Positions 2,884-35,890 of a stretch of DNA of 64,000 bases are shown here, one piece after another. The notes below the pieces were generated by a model. It did no database searches and was not told the DNA's origin. It worked only from the letters and a program-made list of their open reading frames with translations. The stretch spans positions 1,463,125 to 1,527,124 of the forward strand of contig CAVWRM010000001.1 in the NCBI GenBank assembly GCA_963757525.1. Reading direction: 5' to 3'. The DNA comes from an uncultured Gemmatimonadales bacterium. GTDB taxonomy: Bacteria; Gemmatimonadota; Gemmatimonadetes; Gemmatimonadales; GWC2-71-9. Each line of letters begins with the position of its first letter. Position 1 is the first letter of the stretch. The translations under genes were made by a program, and so were the position numbers.

Positions 2884-5552
2884 ATCGCGGATTGTTCCGC
2901 AGCGGATCGTACGTGGGATCCAGCTTGAGCCACCCGGGCGCGAGGTGGTACGGGATCTTGAGCAACGGCTCCAGCTGGTCGAGCGCCTTCTCCGGCTCGC
3001 CCGCCAGGATGTATGTCCGCACCAGCTGGAGCTGCATGTAGGGACCGCCGAACGCGTCCTTGGAGATCGGATTCAGCTCGACGCCCTTGAGCGCCTCGCG
3101 GATGGCCTCGTCCTTCTTGCCGAGGTAGCCGAGCGACACGCCTCTGAGCGCGTGGAGCTGCGGGTCGTTCGGCGTCGCCCGCAACTGCTCCGCGAACGCC
3201 ATCTGCGCTGAGTCGGCGTAGGCCCGGGCGTGAAGCTGGTCGCCGCGGAGTGCATAGGTCTGGGCCAGCACGAACGCCCAACCGGCTCGATTGTTGTCGA
3301 ACTGCCGGGGCGTCAGCCGGAGCACCAGCCGCTGCTGCTCGTCGTTCAGGATCCAGTACAGATCGTCGTAGGTCGCGAAGAAGGCCGCCAGGGCCGTGGG
3401 CTCGACCTCGGTCGGCACCGCTCGCAGGGTGGCCTGTGCTCCCGCGAGATCGCCCTGCATGAGATAGATCGAGGCCTTGTTCTGGACCACGATCAGGTTG
3501 GTGGGGGCGAGCGCGATTGCCCGGTTGGCCACCGTGAGCGCTTCGGGAAAGTGCCGTCGCCACGATAGCACCCGCGCGAGCCTGCGCGCAGTCTGGGCAG
3601 AGTTGGGATCCAGCACCAGTGCCCGGCGATAGTGCTCCTCGGCTGCGTCCCACCGGCCGAAGCCTTCCTCGACGAAGGCCTCCGCCGAGACCAGGGCGGC
3701 GTTGTTGGGCGTGAGATGCACGCCCTCCGTGTACTGCTCCAGCGCGCGCTCCAGACTTCCGCCCGCGGTCTCGTAATACTTGCCCATCGCCAGCCTTGCT
3801 TCCGGGCTCTCCGGTGCGAGCGCGGTGACCCGCTCGGCCGCCGCCAACGCGGCCCGCGCATCCTCAGGTGTGGGCTCGCTCAGACCGTAGAGCAGCGAGT
3901 GGGTCTGGGAGAGCTGGGCCCACGCCAGAGTGAACGTGGAGTCGAGCGCCACCGCCTGCTCGTAGTAGCTCAGCGCGCGCCGGAGCAGCGTCGGGTCGAT
4001 GACCGCCAAACCGTTCGAGATCTCCTCTCCTTTGAGGAAAGCGTCGTACGCCGCCAGGTTCTTGGTCGGCGGGGCCTCCAGCGCCTTGCGCTCGGCCGAG
4101 CCCAGCGCCGCGCCCAGTGCCTGCGCCACCCGGGTGGCGACATCGGCCTGCACCTGGAACACGTCGGTGAGCGAGGCGTCGAATGGCGCCTGCCACCGGG
4201 TCTTGGGAGTCCCGCCGGGTGAGACCTCGACCAGCTCGGGGCTCACCAGCACTCGGCTCGCCCCGCCGGCGCCCTTTTCCCATCTGACCGTGCCGGTGAG
4301 CAGATAGCGCGCGCCCAGCTCGCGTGCGATCTGCTCGGCTGACTTGGTGGCCTTCTTGTAGGGCTCGGAGCTGCTTCGGGCGATCACCTGCACGCTCGGG
4401 ATCGCGGCGAGCTTTCCTCGTACCGCGTCGGTTACGCCATCGGCGAAGTACTCGTCCTCGCTCGGTCCCAGGTTCTCGAACGGCAGAACGGCCAGCACGC
4501 TGGATCCGTCGGTCGTCGGCGGCACCGGCGCTGCCATGCTTCCAGGCGAACAGCACACCCAGCCCGATCAGGAGTCCCGTGACCAGCGCCGCGGCCGCGA
4601 GCGGGAACCGCCGGCCGTGCGGACCAGGCTGTGATTGAGAAGCGGCACGGGATGTCGGCACCGTCGCCTGGGCGACGGTGGCTGCCGATGTCGTGCTGAA
4701 AGGGGCAATCTGCAGCGCCTGGGCGAACTGGGCGACGGTCGCGAACCTGTCGGCGGCGACCTGCGCCAGCGCTTGCCGGATCGCGTGGTCCACCGACTCC
4801 GGCACGCTCGGCCGGGTCGAGCGAACGCTCGGCGGCGGCTCGGTGAGCCGCTTCACGATCAGCGCCTGAATGGTGGCGCCGGTGTAGGGCGCTTCGCCGG
4901 CAAGCATCTCGTAGAGCACCGCGCCGAGACTATAGAGGTCGGTCCGGGCGTCGAGTCCCTTGTCCCCGCTGGCCTGCTCCGGGCTCATGTAGGCCGGGGT
5001 GCCGACCACGAGTCCGGTCTCCGTGAGCCGCGATTCCTCCGCTCCGGCGCCGAGCGCCCGCGCCACGCCGAAGTCGGCCACCAGGGTATTGCCGTCCCGG
5101 GTGAGCAGCAGATTCTCCGGCTTGATGTCCCGGTGAATCACCCCTTGATCGTGCGCGTACTGCAGCGCCTGCGCCGCCTCTCGCGCGATGCGGATGGCGT
5201 CCTCGACGGGGAGCTGGCGCTCGCGTTGCAGCCGGGCGCGAAGCGACTCGCCATGGACGAACGGCATGGTGAACCAGAGGAGGGTCGCCGCTGGCGAGGC
5301 GACTTCGCCTGAATCCAGCACCGTGAGGATGTGAGGATGCTGCAGTCGCGCGGCCACGCGGATCTCGCGCTGGAACCGCTCCGCACCGAGCATTTGCCCC
5401 AGCTCCGGATGCAGGACCTTGAGGGCGACGGGGCGATCGTACTTCAGGTCGTGCGCGAGATAGACAGTGGCCATCCCCCCGCGCCCGAGCTCGCGCTCGA
5501 GCGTGTATCTGCCGCTCAGCCCGCCTTGAAGCTCTGCCAGCAGGTCGGCCAT
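2861..5552 (-). pseudogene. Ser/Thr protein kinase (kinase-TM-periplasmic/TPR architecture) split by one frameshift
   Basis: Track ORF 3864..5552 carries the kinase domain (GRGGMATVYLAHDL, HRDIKPENLL, DFG, GTPAYMSPEQ) and the TM helix (LAAAALVTGLLIGLGVLFAW), then turns into Arg/Gly-rich noise. Track ORF 2861..4558, in another frame, continues with VLAVLPFENLGPSEDEYFADGVTD... This is colinear with the single-ORF paralogue 8473..11319 (ILAVLPFENLGDSADAYFAAGVSD...). The frame switch lies within about 4512-4548. Confidence 0.75.
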
Positions 5553-32141: not shown

Positions 32142-32708
32142 CTACCTACCCCGCTGTATCGCCGCCCCCAACTCCTTGTAGGCCGAGGCGTCCACTTCCC
32201 GGAACGGAATCGCCCGGTAGCTGATCCGGCCGTCCGGCCCGACCACGAACAGGTTGCGATTGGTGAGACCGGGCTCGTCGGCCAGGGCTCCGTATTGCCG
32301 GGCGACAGCCAGCGCCCTGTCGCTCGCGAACAGGAACGGGTACTCCTTGTCGCGCGCCCAGGAGGCGAGCGCGGTGTCGGGGTCGGCGCTGATGGCAATC
32401 AGAACTACCCCTCGGCCGTTCTTGAAGATCGTCGCGTACTGATCACGGTACGCGTCCATTTGCACCGTTCAGCCACCGGTCCTGGCTTTGTAGAAGAACG
32501 CCAGCACCACCGTCTTCCCCTTGAAGTCGGAGAGCCGGACCGGCTTCGCCAGGACGCCGTAACGTGTGGCACCGAGCAGGCTGAAATCGGGCGCACGAGC
32601 GCCGATCTCGAGGGGACGCGCGGGGTGGGTCGTTTCCTGCGCCCCGAGTGCGGCCGGGACGAGGACGAGACCGGCGCTGACGATGAGGGCGAGCGACAGC
32701 GGCTTCAT
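32142..32708 (-). CDS. Secreted AhpC/TSA (BCP-like) peroxiredoxin with an in-frame TGA at the peroxidatic Cys position (candidate selenocysteine; alternatively a nonsense pseudogene)
   Basis: ATG 32708 preceded by GGAGGG, with signal peptide MKPLSLALIVSAGLVLVPAALGAQ. Sequence reads APDFSLLG..FKGKTVVLAFFYKARTGG-[TGA 32469-32471]-TVQMDAYRDQYATIF..VVLAISADP..PFLFASD..RNLFVVGPDGRI. The stop replaces the C of the family T-x-x-C motif. Track ORFs 32469.. and 32142..32465 are contiguous in one frame. Confidence 0.6.
32433..32454 (-). promoter_or_regulatory. SECIS-like hairpin downstream of the in-frame UGA
   Basis: mRNA sequence CGCGUAC-CGUGAUCA-GUACGCG forms a 7-bp stem with an 8-nt loop containing GU. 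The stem starts 14 nt after the UGA. Confidence 0.4.
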
Positions 32709-32851
32709 ATGCCCTCCGTATGATGAGCGAGCCTGAATATACGCCGGATGCACCCAGGGAAAACCCCGAGGACGCGGCCGCCGAGATCGAGGTGCAAGGC
32801 GCCCGCTATTCGGAAGGCTCGCAGCGGATGATCGACCGCTGACGGCCGTCG

Positions 32852-35800
32852 CTACGGCACGACCGGCTGGTACTTGTCCAGCCAGGCGAGGCTCTCCTGA
32901 ATCAGGCGCACCCGGGGGACAAAGTGACTGCCTTCTCCGATGATGTGACGCTTCTGCTCGGCCGGGGTGCCCAGGAGACGGAACATCGGGACTTGTGACG
33001 TCTCGATGGGGAAGTAGAAATCGTAGCGGCCATTGATCATCAGGGTAGGAATCCGGATCCTGGGGAGATAGTTGATCGGGTCCGCCTCTGGCCGGACCGG
33101 GGGGAAGTCCAGGCCGGCCACCTCGAGCACACTCACGCGGATACGCGGCTCCACAGCCGGCATCAGCCCGCCCATTTCGCCGCCCCAGCTCACACCGTAG
33201 TAGGCGAGTCGCTCCGTCGAGACCTCCGGCCGAGTCTCCAGGTAATCGATGCCCCTCCCCAGGTCCTTGGCCCACATGACGACGTGGTCGCGATAGAAGA
33301 TGGTCGAATCCTGGGTGTCGCTGGCGAGGGAGTCGTGCCGCTGGTAGGTGCCCTTGTATATCGGGTACAGCACAGCCCGGCCGCTCTTGAGTATGAAATC
33401 GAATTGGCGCGTCGCCCCCGCCTGAAGCGCGAGGTCGTAGATGGCGTTTCCCGCCGGGAAGAAGACCACCGCGGGGAAAGGCTTCGTCCCCCGTTTGGGG
33501 AGATAGAGGTACACCAGCAGGCTGTCGTCGGCGTAGCCGGCGTTCAGGCGGACCAGCTCCCGGGTCCAGGCTCCCTCGTCCACCGTTTCGATCACCCGGG
33601 GGTCGAGCGGTTTTCGATCGTACTCGTACATCTGACGGTAGATGGCGAAGACGGCGTCGCTCACCGGCTGCACCCGGAGAAAGTCACGCAGTCTCCGCGT
33701 GAGCGGCGCGGCCGCCCGCGCCAGATTCGAGTCCGTCGCCATGTATCGGACCAGGCGAATTCCATTGGCGGGCGATCGGTCGAAGGGAGCCTGGGTGTAG
33801 GAGTCGTTGAACAGGTACGGCGGGTCGTTCCAGCCGCCGCCCAGGATGAAGCGCTGGGCGCCGCTGGCGTTCAGGCACCACTCCCGCACGTTGCCGGCCA
33901 TGTCGTAGGTACCGAAGGCGCTGACGCCCCGGGTGCTGCCGATGGGAACCGTCCCATGGCCCGAAAAGTTGCTGGCTGGAACGATCCAGGCACTGTTGCG
34001 CAGGCTGGCGGCCCGGTTCCAGTGGGCCACACTGGGCAGCGACTTGCCCTCAAACCGGGCGAATGCCATTGCCTCGAACCAGCTCACCCCGCCGACCGGA
34101 TCATTGTCCTTGCCGGGCAGGTACTCTCCTGCCTCCCAGGTGGAGGGGCCGGTCCGCCCGGTTCGATCGGTCATGAGCTTCATGGCCTGCCCCCACGGGA
34201 TCGTGCGGCCATCCTTCACGAGCGGCTCTTCCCACAGCTCCCGGCGCCGGTATCCCCCGCTGTCTACGAACCGCTTGAAGTCGCGATTGGTGATCTCGAA
34301 TCGGTCCATCAGGTAGTCGCCCAGCACGATCGGCTCGACATTCTCGAACCCCGGATATTGAACGCCGAGCCTGCCTCCGGCGATGCGGACCATCTCGGGC
34401 GGGATCGCACCGTCTCGACTCAAGGCGATCACCGAATCGCCGAATGGCAGGCCGACCAGGTCCAGCGTTCGGTAGCCCGGGGCCCGAATCCTCAGACGGT
34501 TGGCATCGAGAAACTGCCCGCCCGCTCCGCTCAGGGCCACCAGTGCGCTATCGAGCGGCGTGCGCCCAAGAAGGACCCACGTTGACTCAGGCGTGTCGTA
34601 GCCCTTCCGCCAGACCTCGGCTCCCGGCGGTGCCGTTCGGATTCGGTAGCGGCGGGCGAACCTCGGCCGCAACGCATCGAACAAGGAATCGGGTCCGAGC
34701 CTGGCCTCGACCTCTCGGGCCAATTGGTAGGCCGCTTCCCACTCTCCGGATTCGGCCAAGGTCAGGAGCTGCGGTATGGCTTTGTCGTGCGCCCAGGAGC
34801 GCTCCCGCGCTCGGTGTCCCGGGCCGGCCCACAACCATCCGCCCATCGCGACCGTCAGGACTGCCGCGGCGATCGCCGCACGGCGTCGCCGAATCGACCT
34901 GGCGCTCCCAGCAGGGCTCGCGGCCGTCACTCCGCCGCCTGGCGTGGCGAAGGCCTCGAGCTGCGCCAGCAGCTCCTCGGCCGACTGCCAGCGGTTCTCC
35001 GGATCCTTTTCGAGGCAGCGCATGATCGCCGCCGCGAAGACGGGGGCGACGTCCGGACGGAGCGGCCCGAGCGGCGCCGGGGTCCGGCCAATGTGCGCCC
35101 CCAGGATGACCTCCGGCCTCTCCCCCGTGAACGGCGGCTGCCCGGTCAGCATCTCGTACCCCAACACGCCCACCGCGTACAAGTCGGCTCGACCGTCTGT
35201 CCCCATCCGACCCGTTGCCTGCTCGGGAGCCATGTAGGCGGGAGTGCCGATGGCCAGGCCCACCATCGTGAGGGTGCCGCCGGCGATGGAGTCCCCGGCT
35301 TCACTGGCGGCTCTCGCCACGCCGAAATCCACCACCAGGGCGTGCCGTCCCCTGAGCATGATGTTCTCGGGTTTGATGTCCCGATGGACGATCCCGTGCC
35401 GGTGAGCCTCCGCCAGCGCGTCGAGCACGCTTCGCAGGATCGATGCGGTGTCGCCCGGCGACAGCGTGCCTTCCCTGGCCAGGCGACTCCGGAGGCTTTC
35501 CCCATCCACGTAGGGCATCACGTAGTAGAGGAGGCCGGGTCCGTTCCCACCCGGTCCGGGGACTTCGCCCGAGTCGATCAGCGTCAGGACGTGCGGGTGC
35601 TGCAGATGGGCGGCGATGCGAATTTCGCGAAGGAAGCGCTCGGGGCCGAGCGCGGCGGAAAGTTCCGGATGCAGGACCTTGAGGGCGACGGAGCGATCGT
35701 GCCTCAGGTCGTGCGCGAGGAAGACGGTGGCCATGCCGCCGCGGCCGAGCTCACGATCCAGCCGGTAGCGGTCCGCAAGAGCACCCCGTAGACGTGCGAG

Positions 35801-35890
35801 CAGGTCGGACAAGTTGGCTTTCGAGGGGGTACTGAAACATGGGTGGGCGCCGAACGCCCGGCTAGTCATGGGGTGGTGAATGCCGATCAT
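32852..35890 (-). CDS. Ser/Thr protein kinase fused to an FGE/SUMF1-type domain and a C-terminal alpha/beta hydrolase domain
   Basis: Kinase motifs: GRGGMATVFLAHDL, HRDIKPENIM, DFG, GTPAYMAPEQ. TM helix AAIAAAVLTVAMGGWLWAG. FGE-sulfatase-like segment: GGVSWFEAMAFARFEGKSLPS..WNRAA..YDMAGNVREWC. Hydrolase elbow GVSWGG and distal GSHF. The start may be ATG 35869. Confidence 0.85.
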   Translation of the reverse strand: MIGIHHPMTSRAFGAHPCFSTPSKANLSDLLARLRGALADRYRLDRELGRGGMATVFLAHDLRHDRSVALKVLHPELSAALGPERFLREIRIAAHLQHPHVLTLIDSGEVPGPGGNGPGLLYYVMPYVDGESLRSRLAREGTLSPGDTASILRSVLDALAEAHRHGIVHRDIKPENIMLRGRHALVVDFGVARAASEAGDSIAGGTLTMVGLAIGTPAYMAPEQATGRMGTDGRADLYAVGVLGYEMLTGQPPFTGERPEVILGAHIGRTPAPLGPLRPDVAPVFAAAIMRCLEKDPENRWQSAEELLAQLEAFATPGGGVTAASPAGSARSIRRRRAAIAAAVLTVAMGGWLWAGPGHRARERSWAHDKAIPQLLTLAESGEWEAAYQLAREVEARLGPDSLFDALRPRFARRYRIRTAPPGAEVWRKGYDTPESTWVLLGRTPLDSALVALSGAGGQFLDANRLRIRAPGYRTLDLVGLPFGDSVIALSRDGAIPPEMVRIAGGRLGVQYPGFENVEPIVLGDYLMDRFEITNRDFKRFVDSGGYRRRELWEEPLVKDGRTIPWGQAMKLMTDRTGRTGPSTWEAGEYLPGKDNDPVGGVSWFEAMAFARFEGKSLPSVAHWNRAASLRNSAWIVPASNFSGHGTVPIGSTRGVSAFGTYDMAGNVREWCLNASGAQRFILGGGWNDPPYLFNDSYTQAPFDRSPANGIRLVRYMATDSNLARAAAPLTRRLRDFLRVQPVSDAVFAIYRQMYEYDRKPLDPRVIETVDEGAWTRELVRLNAGYADDSLLVYLYLPKRGTKPFPAVVFFPAGNAIYDLALQAGATRQFDFILKSGRAVLYPIYKGTYQRHDSLASDTQDSTIFYRDHVVMWAKDLGRGIDYLETRPEVSTERLAYYGVSWGGEMGGLMPAVEPRIRVSVLEVAGLDFPPVRPEADPINYLPRIRIPTLMINGRYDFYFPIETSQVPMFRLLGTPAEQKRHIIGEGSHFVPRVRLIQESLAWLDKYQPVVP

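Follow-up and report, generated by a model that had tools for sequence, protein, structure and literature searches.

A conserved in-frame TGA and a near-invariant downstream hairpin point to a probable exported selenocysteine peroxiredoxin in Gemmatimonadales

The stretch of DNA analysed here, 64,000 nucleotides (nt) from an uncultured Gemmatimonadales bacterium (GenBank assembly GCA_963757525.1, contig CAVWRM010000001.1, positions 1,463,125 to 1,527,124; hereafter the window), carries on its minus strand a peroxiredoxin gene whose reading frame is crossed by an in-frame TGA at codon 80, the position of the peroxidatic Cys. Our results indicate that the gene is almost certainly intact and not broken. 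Comparison with related genes suggests that its UGA is recoded as selenocysteine (Sec) by the standard bacterial route, which would give an exported Sec-peroxiredoxin of the BCP/PrxQ type, and we give this interpretation a probability of roughly 0.92.

The frame runs from an ATG at 32708..32706 to a TAG at 32144..32142, and the TGA at 32471..32469 is its single interruption. With the Sec residue (U) written as Cys, the protein matches Pfam AhpC-TSA (PF00578) with an E-value of 9e-28 and 97.1 bits (cutoff 26), residues 35-164 lying on profile positions 1-123 of 124, that is, on the whole domain; the Redoxin profile is matched as well (6e-20, 72 bits). The best solved-structure matches are peroxiredoxins of the BCP and AhpE types (E 3e-13 to 1e-11), and alignment with 2ywn, 5id2 and 3hjp sets T77-G-G-U80 on their T-x-x-C, with codon 80 in the peroxidatic Cys column. 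The Thr77 column holds T in 75 of 80 homologues and S in some of the others. A reading of the letters made earlier without database searches (the sequence-only reading) had described one peroxiredoxin frame split only by a TGA at the catalytic Cys, together with a GGAGGG ribosome-binding site, a signal peptide and the conserved Arg. Open reading frames (ORFs), Pfam and PDB alignments confirm the former, and the latter three are all present (Table 1), the signal peptide as read by eye. Signal-peptide-like N-termini were also seen in the few homologues whose N-termini were read. The Pro that peroxiredoxins conserve in the active-site motif is Tyr73 here, a deviation that occurs inside the family and is no ground for exclusion from it. 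All NCBIfam cutoffs are missed: the top match, thiol peroxidase Bcp (PRK09437), reaches 58.1 bits against a cutoff of 140, and the PrxU equivalog NF040737 reaches 48.8 bits against 270.

Two sets of relatives of the gene were compared. The first came from a genome scan with one genome per species and comprises 79 loci, all from Gemmatimonadales or Gemmatimonadota metagenome-assembled genomes, with 80 gene copies; the second consists of the best 80 relatives from a metagenome scan that was seeded with an alignment of Cys-containing forms. The codon aligned with the window TGA is TGA in all 80 genome copies, at 51-86% protein identity to the window gene, and, despite the Cys-form seed, in 78 of the 80 metagenome copies, the other two having TGC. 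The TGA is thus shared by 158 of the 160 other copies fetched, and the Sec-type genes number 159 when the window is included, 158 of them distinct across the 90-nt segment compared. None of these 159 genes has a further stop or a frameshift, and the segment 3' of the TGA spans 105-137 codons in every one. Two outcomes that would have spoken against a selenoprotein, orthologues all carrying TGC with no conserved hairpin and additional lesions in the gene, are therefore not what the relatives present: TGA and hairpin are kept, no second stop or frameshift is seen, and both halves are under purifying selection. The closest species-representative genome (L001, CAVROI010000002.1) has two Sec-type copies 4.7 kb apart, with TGA at 5512 and 10226 and identical hairpins; the window has one copy. 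A few sequences of the Sec clade depart from the rule. At the protein level, P0001, P0002 and P0005 read Leu twice and Trp once (P0002) at the Sec site, with Phe seven residues before it, and in DNA the short contig L164 (ERZ15664656 NODE_137323, 864 bp, 1.6x coverage) reads TTA. The intact hairpin was verified in L164 alone among these variants, which probably arose by sequencing error, by gene calling under an alternative code or as rare mutants. Cys occupies the column in 88 homologues at the protein level, and TGC was read in DNA for seven.

Both coding halves are under purifying selection. In pairwise comparisons of the window gene with ten relatives, the ratio of nonsynonymous to synonymous substitution rates (dN/dS) is 0.10-0.35 upstream of the TGA (codons 35-79) and 0.13-0.53 downstream of it (codons 94-188), low values on both sides that a pseudogene, or a gene of which one half only is used, would not be expected to give. 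In codons 83-93 dS is 0 in nine of the ten comparisons, against 0.24-1.2 in the flanks.

These frozen codons coincide with a hairpin. A 7-bp stem with an 8-nt loop begins 14 nt past the TGA, and the stem, the GU-containing loop and the spacing of the sequence-only reading were all found exactly where they had been placed. That reading had also held that the hairpin sits where bacterial Sec insertion sequence (SECIS) elements sit, and the published consensus bears this out: it has an apical loop of 3-9 nt, an upper stem of 4-16 bp, a G at loop position 1 or 2, with G or U as the usual next nucleotide, a UGA-to-loop distance of 16-37 nt and a free energy of at most -7.5 kcal/mol (PMC13188914). 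Here the loop of 8 nt starts with C-G-U, the stem has 7 bp, the UGA-to-loop distance is 21 nt and the free energy is -9.4 kcal/mol for the isolated hairpin and -10.5 in context, all within the model.

Across the 159 genes the inner 6 bp show no variation at all and the loop differs in three. The closing pair, formed by two synonymous third positions, is C-G in 112 genes, U-A in 44, G-C in one, U.G in one and mismatched in one. Among 109 distinct rows 99.9% of the cells are paired, with 25 double changes and a covariation score that none of 500 shuffles reached; pairing collapses when the partner columns are slid, and the RNAalifold consensus is exactly this hairpin in three sequence contexts. 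Codon choice over the element is correspondingly rigid. Codon entropy is 0-0.4 bits at codons 83-93, as against about 0.3-2.1 at the remaining conserved columns with degenerate codons, codons 77-79 excepted. Within codons 84-92 of the 80 genome copies, GCG, TAC, CGT, GAT, CAG and TAC are each used in 80/80 and a second GCG in 79/80; over all 159 genes GCG, TAC, CAG and TAC are invariant, with CGT in 157 and GAT in 158. Both CGT and GAT, although nearly fixed here, are otherwise minority codons in a genome with 69% GC.

Seven independent TGC genes read in DNA (L091, L095, L160, L162, L165, L166 and L167) served as a control. They share the peptide motif Q-M-x-[AT]-Y-R-D-[QKR]-Y with the Sec forms, but their codon choice differs. 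Gln83 is CAA in 139/159 Sec forms and in none of the seven Cys forms, all of which have CAG; Arg88 is CGT in 157/159 and 1/7, Asp89 is GAT in 158/159 and 2/7, and the 7-bp stem is intact in 158/159 and 1/7, respectively. Fisher tests on Q83, A86, R88 and D89, the four most discriminating codons, give p values of 7e-9 to 1.5e-6, uncorrected for relatedness. Since the Cys forms encode the same peptide with other codons, the fixed nucleotide sequence goes with the TGA and not with the peptide. An alignment with Cys-containing homologues, which the sequence-only reading had proposed as a check, thus yields Cys forms that do exist and lack the fixed SECIS codons, six of the seven also lacking an intact stem. 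No other hairpin with the same loop was found behind an in-frame TGA outside this peroxiredoxin family.

Table 1. Features of the peroxiredoxin gene and its RNA element, in window coordinates
Feature	Position	Strand	Details and basis
Peroxiredoxin coding sequence, BCP/PrxQ-like, predicted exported	32142..32708	minus	188 codons + TAG; one in-frame TGA; Pfam and PDB matches
Shine-Dalgarno-like GGAGGG	32712..32717	minus	sequence alone; 3-nt gap to ATG, short
Predicted signal peptide, codons 1-22	32643..32708	minus	MKPLSLALIVSAGLVLVPAALG; likely cleavage before AQ; read by eye
Codon 73, Tyr, at conserved Pro position of PxxxTxxC motif	32490..32492	minus	F/Y/S in 159 Sec forms
Codon 77, active-site Thr of TxxU	32478..32480	minus	aligns with motif Thr of solved structures
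TGA, codon 80, proposed Sec codon at peroxidatic Cys position	32469..32471	minus	homologue and PDB alignments
Spacer between UGA and hairpin, 14 nt	32455..32468	minus	ACGGUGCAAAUGGA; includes the unusually fixed CAA codon 83
Codons 83-93 (QMDAYRDQYAT), synonymous sites frozen	32430..32462	minus	entropy, dS, contrast with Cys forms
SECIS-type hairpin	32433..32454	minus	5' arm 32454..32448 CGCGUAC; loop 32447..32440 CGUGAUCA; 3' arm 32439..32433 GUACGCG
Codon 151, conserved active-site Arg	32256..32258	minus	R in 80/80

Two further observations concern the RNA around the TGA. Synonymous variation is also low on its 5' side, at codons 77-79 (32472-32480; ACC 74/75, AAG 40/41, GGC 74/80), and the preference for CAA at Gln83 (32460-32462, 139/159) stands against the CAG used in other Gln columns. 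Codons 77-79 and 83 lie outside the 22-nt hairpin, so the hairpin does not explain their constraint; UGA context effects, or extra contacts with SelB or the ribosome, are possible causes. In addition, the region 32433-32473 (minus strand) can adopt an alternative fold in which GCUGA pairs with UCAGU, a segment that the SECIS hairpin uses in its loop and 3' arm. The outer pairing of this fold is nearly invariant across homologues and its middle part is not conserved. As a conserved structure it was rejected: only 84% of the cells are paired, three of its pairs fail in 40-85% of the sequences, and there is no covariation.

The residue encoded by codon 73, seven places ahead of the catalytic one (residue -7), separates the two forms almost completely. 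Among the 159 Sec forms it is Phe in 80, Tyr in 78, Ser in one and never Pro, whereas 91 of 92 Cys forms have Pro, the exception (P0014/L166) having Tyr. The identity of residue -7 and the choice of Sec or Cys thus agree in 250 of 251 sequences. Short-alignment distance trees, built by neighbour joining with the Sec/Cys and -7 columns removed, show Sec and Cys forms interleaved, and one Cys form, P0003, resembles some Sec forms (74-77%) more closely than it does most of the other Cys forms. Parsimony counts eight Sec/Cys changes on the observed tree and 6-17 in 100 bootstraps, against at least 27 with shuffled labels. The number of switches is therefore uncertain, while the coupling of Pro to Cys and of an aromatic residue to Sec is robust. 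Gene conversion of an active-site cassette was considered as a source of both the frozen hairpin and this coupling and was rejected; codons 74-76, which lie between the two, vary normally at synonymous sites, and a converted cassette does not explain the coupling.

Several observations weigh against Sec insertion or leave it less well supported. Taken alone, the window sequence supports the hairpin weakly: over 76 nt the fold z-score against shuffles is only -1.3, 7.3% of the 1300 TGA triplets in the window precede a hairpin with the same properties, and the minimum-energy fold of the window differs from the SECIS hairpin (-14.5 vs -10.5 kcal/mol) and pairs the UGA itself. The case therefore rests on the comparison with relatives, where six of the seven stem pairs are invariant and hence silent for or against pairing, a single pair carries the covariation, and the sequences are not phylogenetically independent. 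Rfam gave no match at gathering score in the window, which counts for little, the presence of a general bacterial SECIS model in Rfam being unchecked; its permissive mode returned only a chance-level match resembling hepatitis delta virus (HDV-like; E 0.78). A search of the window (64 kb) and of 167 related loci (1.58 Mb) by tblastn with E. coli SelA, SelB and SelD and by ARAGORN detected neither selA, selB or selD nor a tRNA-Sec; these are neighbourhoods only and are silent on whole genomes. The tRNA scan of the window returned no tRNA of any kind. In the literature library searched, the supplements of PMC5029168 included, no paper was found that connects Gemmatimonadota to the use of Sec. 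Finally, sequence alone does not tell whether the SECIS directs the insertion of Sec or, through a system of the tRNA(ReC) type, of Cys.

This last alternative survives best, and we consider it improbable. A factor of the SelB type would bring a non-canonical tRNA charged with Cys (tRNA-ReC, SelC*) to the same UGA and hairpin, and the product, always or under selenium scarcity, would be an ordinary 1-Cys peroxiredoxin. The conserved TGA, the hairpin and the selection on both halves fit such a system equally well, and so does repeated switching between Sec and Cys within the family. Nevertheless, the tRNA-ReC-type system has been reported as an addition to canonical SelC and not as its replacement (PMC13582414), and it is hard to explain why so costly a signal would be kept unchanged across an order-level clade when TGC relatives exist. 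Residue -7 speaks against Cys insertion too: its near-perfect division between TGA and TGC forms argues that the residue inserted at the UGA is chemically unlike Cys.

Still less probable is a true stop at codon 80, either programmed termination or low near-cognate readthrough, in which the hairpin would stimulate pausing or readthrough. Translation would then yield an N-terminal peptide of 79 residues and possibly a separate 105-residue fragment from Met84, and gene callers do annotate this 105-residue fragment; the UGA, moreover, is paired in the minimum-energy fold of the window. But neither half would be functional, the N-terminal part holding the signal peptide and Thr77 and the C-terminal part, which has no export signal, holding Arg151 and most of the fold. 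A stop would also have to fall exactly on the catalytic Cys column, in a gene whose halves are under equal purifying selection and whose hairpin has the spacing and loop of a SECIS element, while the fold that pairs the UGA shows no covariation across homologues.

That the gene has decayed, by mutation of TGC to the stop TGA, or only seems to have done so because of an error in sequencing or assembly, has a negligible probability. One base separates TGC from TGA, and the TTA at this site in P0001, on a contig of 1.6x coverage, indicates that single-base noise or mutation does occur there. However, 158 other independently assembled genes at 51-86% identity share this TGA and contain neither another stop nor a frameshift; dN/dS stays far below 1 on either side of it, and a conserved RNA element is tied to it. 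The sequence-only reading had kept the nonsense mutation as an alternative of some weight; the orthologues with TGA and the two-sided purifying selection exclude it. Equally negligible is a change of the genetic code in the whole lineage, by which UGA would specify a standard amino acid as it does under codes 4 and 25: the Trp of P0002 might be a code-4 gene call, but TGA terminates four of the ten long, clearly coding ORFs of the window, which indicates the standard code, and just one coding-flanked in-frame TGA in the window has a redox-motif context. The scan of in-frame TGA codons with coding-like third-position GC content (GC3) on both flanks gave ten other sites in the window, none with a redox motif, and these look like off-frame or gene-junction artefacts; candidate clustering over all related loci likewise gave off-frame artefacts and no other selenoprotein gene.

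Returning to Sec insertion, the known bacterial pathway suggests how the gene would be expressed. With the ribosome at UGA80, the hairpin, with G-U at loop positions 2-3, would act as a bacterial SECIS and recruit SelB-GTP with Sec-tRNA(Sec). Reading of the UGA as Sec would yield a precursor of about 20 kDa, which may then be exported by the general secretory (Sec) translocon. In the mature enzyme the selenolate of U80, placed by Thr77 and Arg151, would attack the peroxide and be converted to a selenenic acid. The mature region contains no Cys in any of the 159 Sec forms, and in 87 of 88 Cys-form database proteins checked the peroxidatic Cys is the sole Cys. A resolving Cys is therefore absent from the Sec forms, and the selenenic acid must be reduced by an outside thiol, presumably directly, as in 1-Cys peroxiredoxins. 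The likeliest electron donor would be a TlpA-like thioredoxin in the periplasm that receives its electrons from the membrane carrier CcdA.

Gene neighbourhoods bear on this donor. Genes for a TlpA-like thioredoxin and a DsbD_TM/CcdA protein adjoin the peroxiredoxin in 32 of the 97 related loci with enough flank, beside Sec and Cys forms alike (for instance L160 4762-6028, L162 3597-4831, L166 3573-4079 and L021 10544-11694), the Cys forms with this pair being three. Their adjacency suggests a dedicated periplasmic supply of reductant. No TlpA-like or CcdA-like gene was detected within the window, where the neighbours of the peroxiredoxin are unrelated to redox. The upstream one (32852-35890, minus) encodes a 1012-residue protein with a Ser/Thr kinase domain at the N-terminus and an FGE-sulfatase (formylglycine-generating-enzyme-like) domain, whose C-terminal ~340 residues have no Pfam match, and the downstream one encodes a protein with a CarboxypepD_reg domain.

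A wider proposal may be made, tentatively and as a conjunction that is rather unlikely to hold in all its parts. The Sec forms might be a distinct subclass of exported selenoperoxiredoxins, with Sec as the sole redox residue in an [F/Y]xxxTxxU motif; the exchange of Pro for an aromatic residue might be tied to selenium catalysis, since it tracks Sec versus Cys across apparently at least six independent switches; and this gene might be the main or only reason why aerobic soil Gemmatimonadales keep a Sec apparatus. If the peroxiredoxin were indeed the main or only client of that apparatus, this would explain why the SECIS is frozen across the order. The adaptation of a peroxiredoxin active site to selenium could be studied in the coupling of Sec with an aromatic residue at the Pro position, which amounts to a natural experiment, and the 22 nearly invariant nucleotides of the hairpin lend themselves well to working out what SelB of this lineage recognises. 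Moreover, Gemmatimonadales are common in soil, and a conserved periplasmic Sec-peroxidase would imply a selenium requirement in the group.

Public annotation is affected as well. In a protein search, the closest matches (85-100% identity) are all C-terminal fragments of 104-107 residues that begin at Met84, as would be expected of gene callers that meet a conserved internal TGA. Such fragments are 29 of the best 120 matches, namely P0032 from this genome, P0084 (HTG49151.1, 'redoxin domain-containing protein') and 27 other clusters. Full-length matches among these 120 reach at most 73% identity and mostly have Cys at the site (88 Cys, 2 Leu, 1 Trp), and no correct full-length call of a Sec-type member is found among them. 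A fragment call loses the catalytic half and the export signal, and what appears to be a broken gene would be a working one. Sec-type genes are carried by this genome, by 79 species-level Gemmatimonadales genomes and by 78 metagenome contigs, and, if our reading is right, genes of this type are systematically mis-annotated.

Compared with known SECIS elements, the hairpin resembles those of the bSECISearch model and of E. coli fdhF in being a stem-loop in the coding region directly after the UGA. It differs in the position of the loop G-U, which lies at +26/+27 from the U of the UGA, whereas in fdhF it is found at +23/+24 by the same numbering. Unlike the bacterial prototype, the stem has no bulged U, and the 8-nt loop contains the palindrome UGAUCA. 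The hairpin is also near-invariant across an order-level clade, while bacterial SECIS elements are generally dissimilar among themselves (PMC13188914).

With regard to the protein, the Thr, Cys-position and Arg columns are shared with BCP/PrxQ and AhpE proteins, among them those of Sulfolobus tokodaii (2ywn) and Mycobacterium tuberculosis (AhpE Rv2238c, 5id2/1xvw). AhpE has a 1-Cys mechanism, and like AhpE the Sec forms have a lone redox residue and no resolving Cys. They differ from BCP and AhpE in having a proposed Sec for Cys, an aromatic residue for the motif Pro and a predicted export signal, the known proteins being cytoplasmic. The periplasmic CcdA/DsbD and TlpA/ResA pathways use the same types of genes that adjoin the peroxiredoxin in relatives, but not in the window. 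The closest known kind is that of the Sec-peroxiredoxins (PF00578), with which the gene has in common the AhpC/TSA fold, the proposed Sec in T-x-x-U, a stem-loop after the UGA and the existence of Cys homologues. From PrxU of Eubacterium acidaminophilum, which we take to be the experimentally verified prototype of these proteins, it is set apart by its BCP/PrxQ/AhpE-like branch, signal peptide, lack of any other Cys, score below the equivalog cutoff and Gemmatimonadales host. The Pro of PxxxTxxU, highly conserved in the family (PMC13188914), is replaced here by Tyr or Phe. Experiments have verified the TxxU peroxiredoxins as a family of bacterial selenoproteins (PMC13188914), one for which a 2016 count gave 78 organisms (PMC5029168), and the sequence-only reading was correct in treating Sec/Cys pairs as established among bacterial peroxiredoxins (PMC13188914, PMC5029168). 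Taken together, fold, motif, Sec/Cys pairing and SECIS join this gene to the known Sec-peroxiredoxins; as these are already described, it is a new member of their kind and not a new kind of system.

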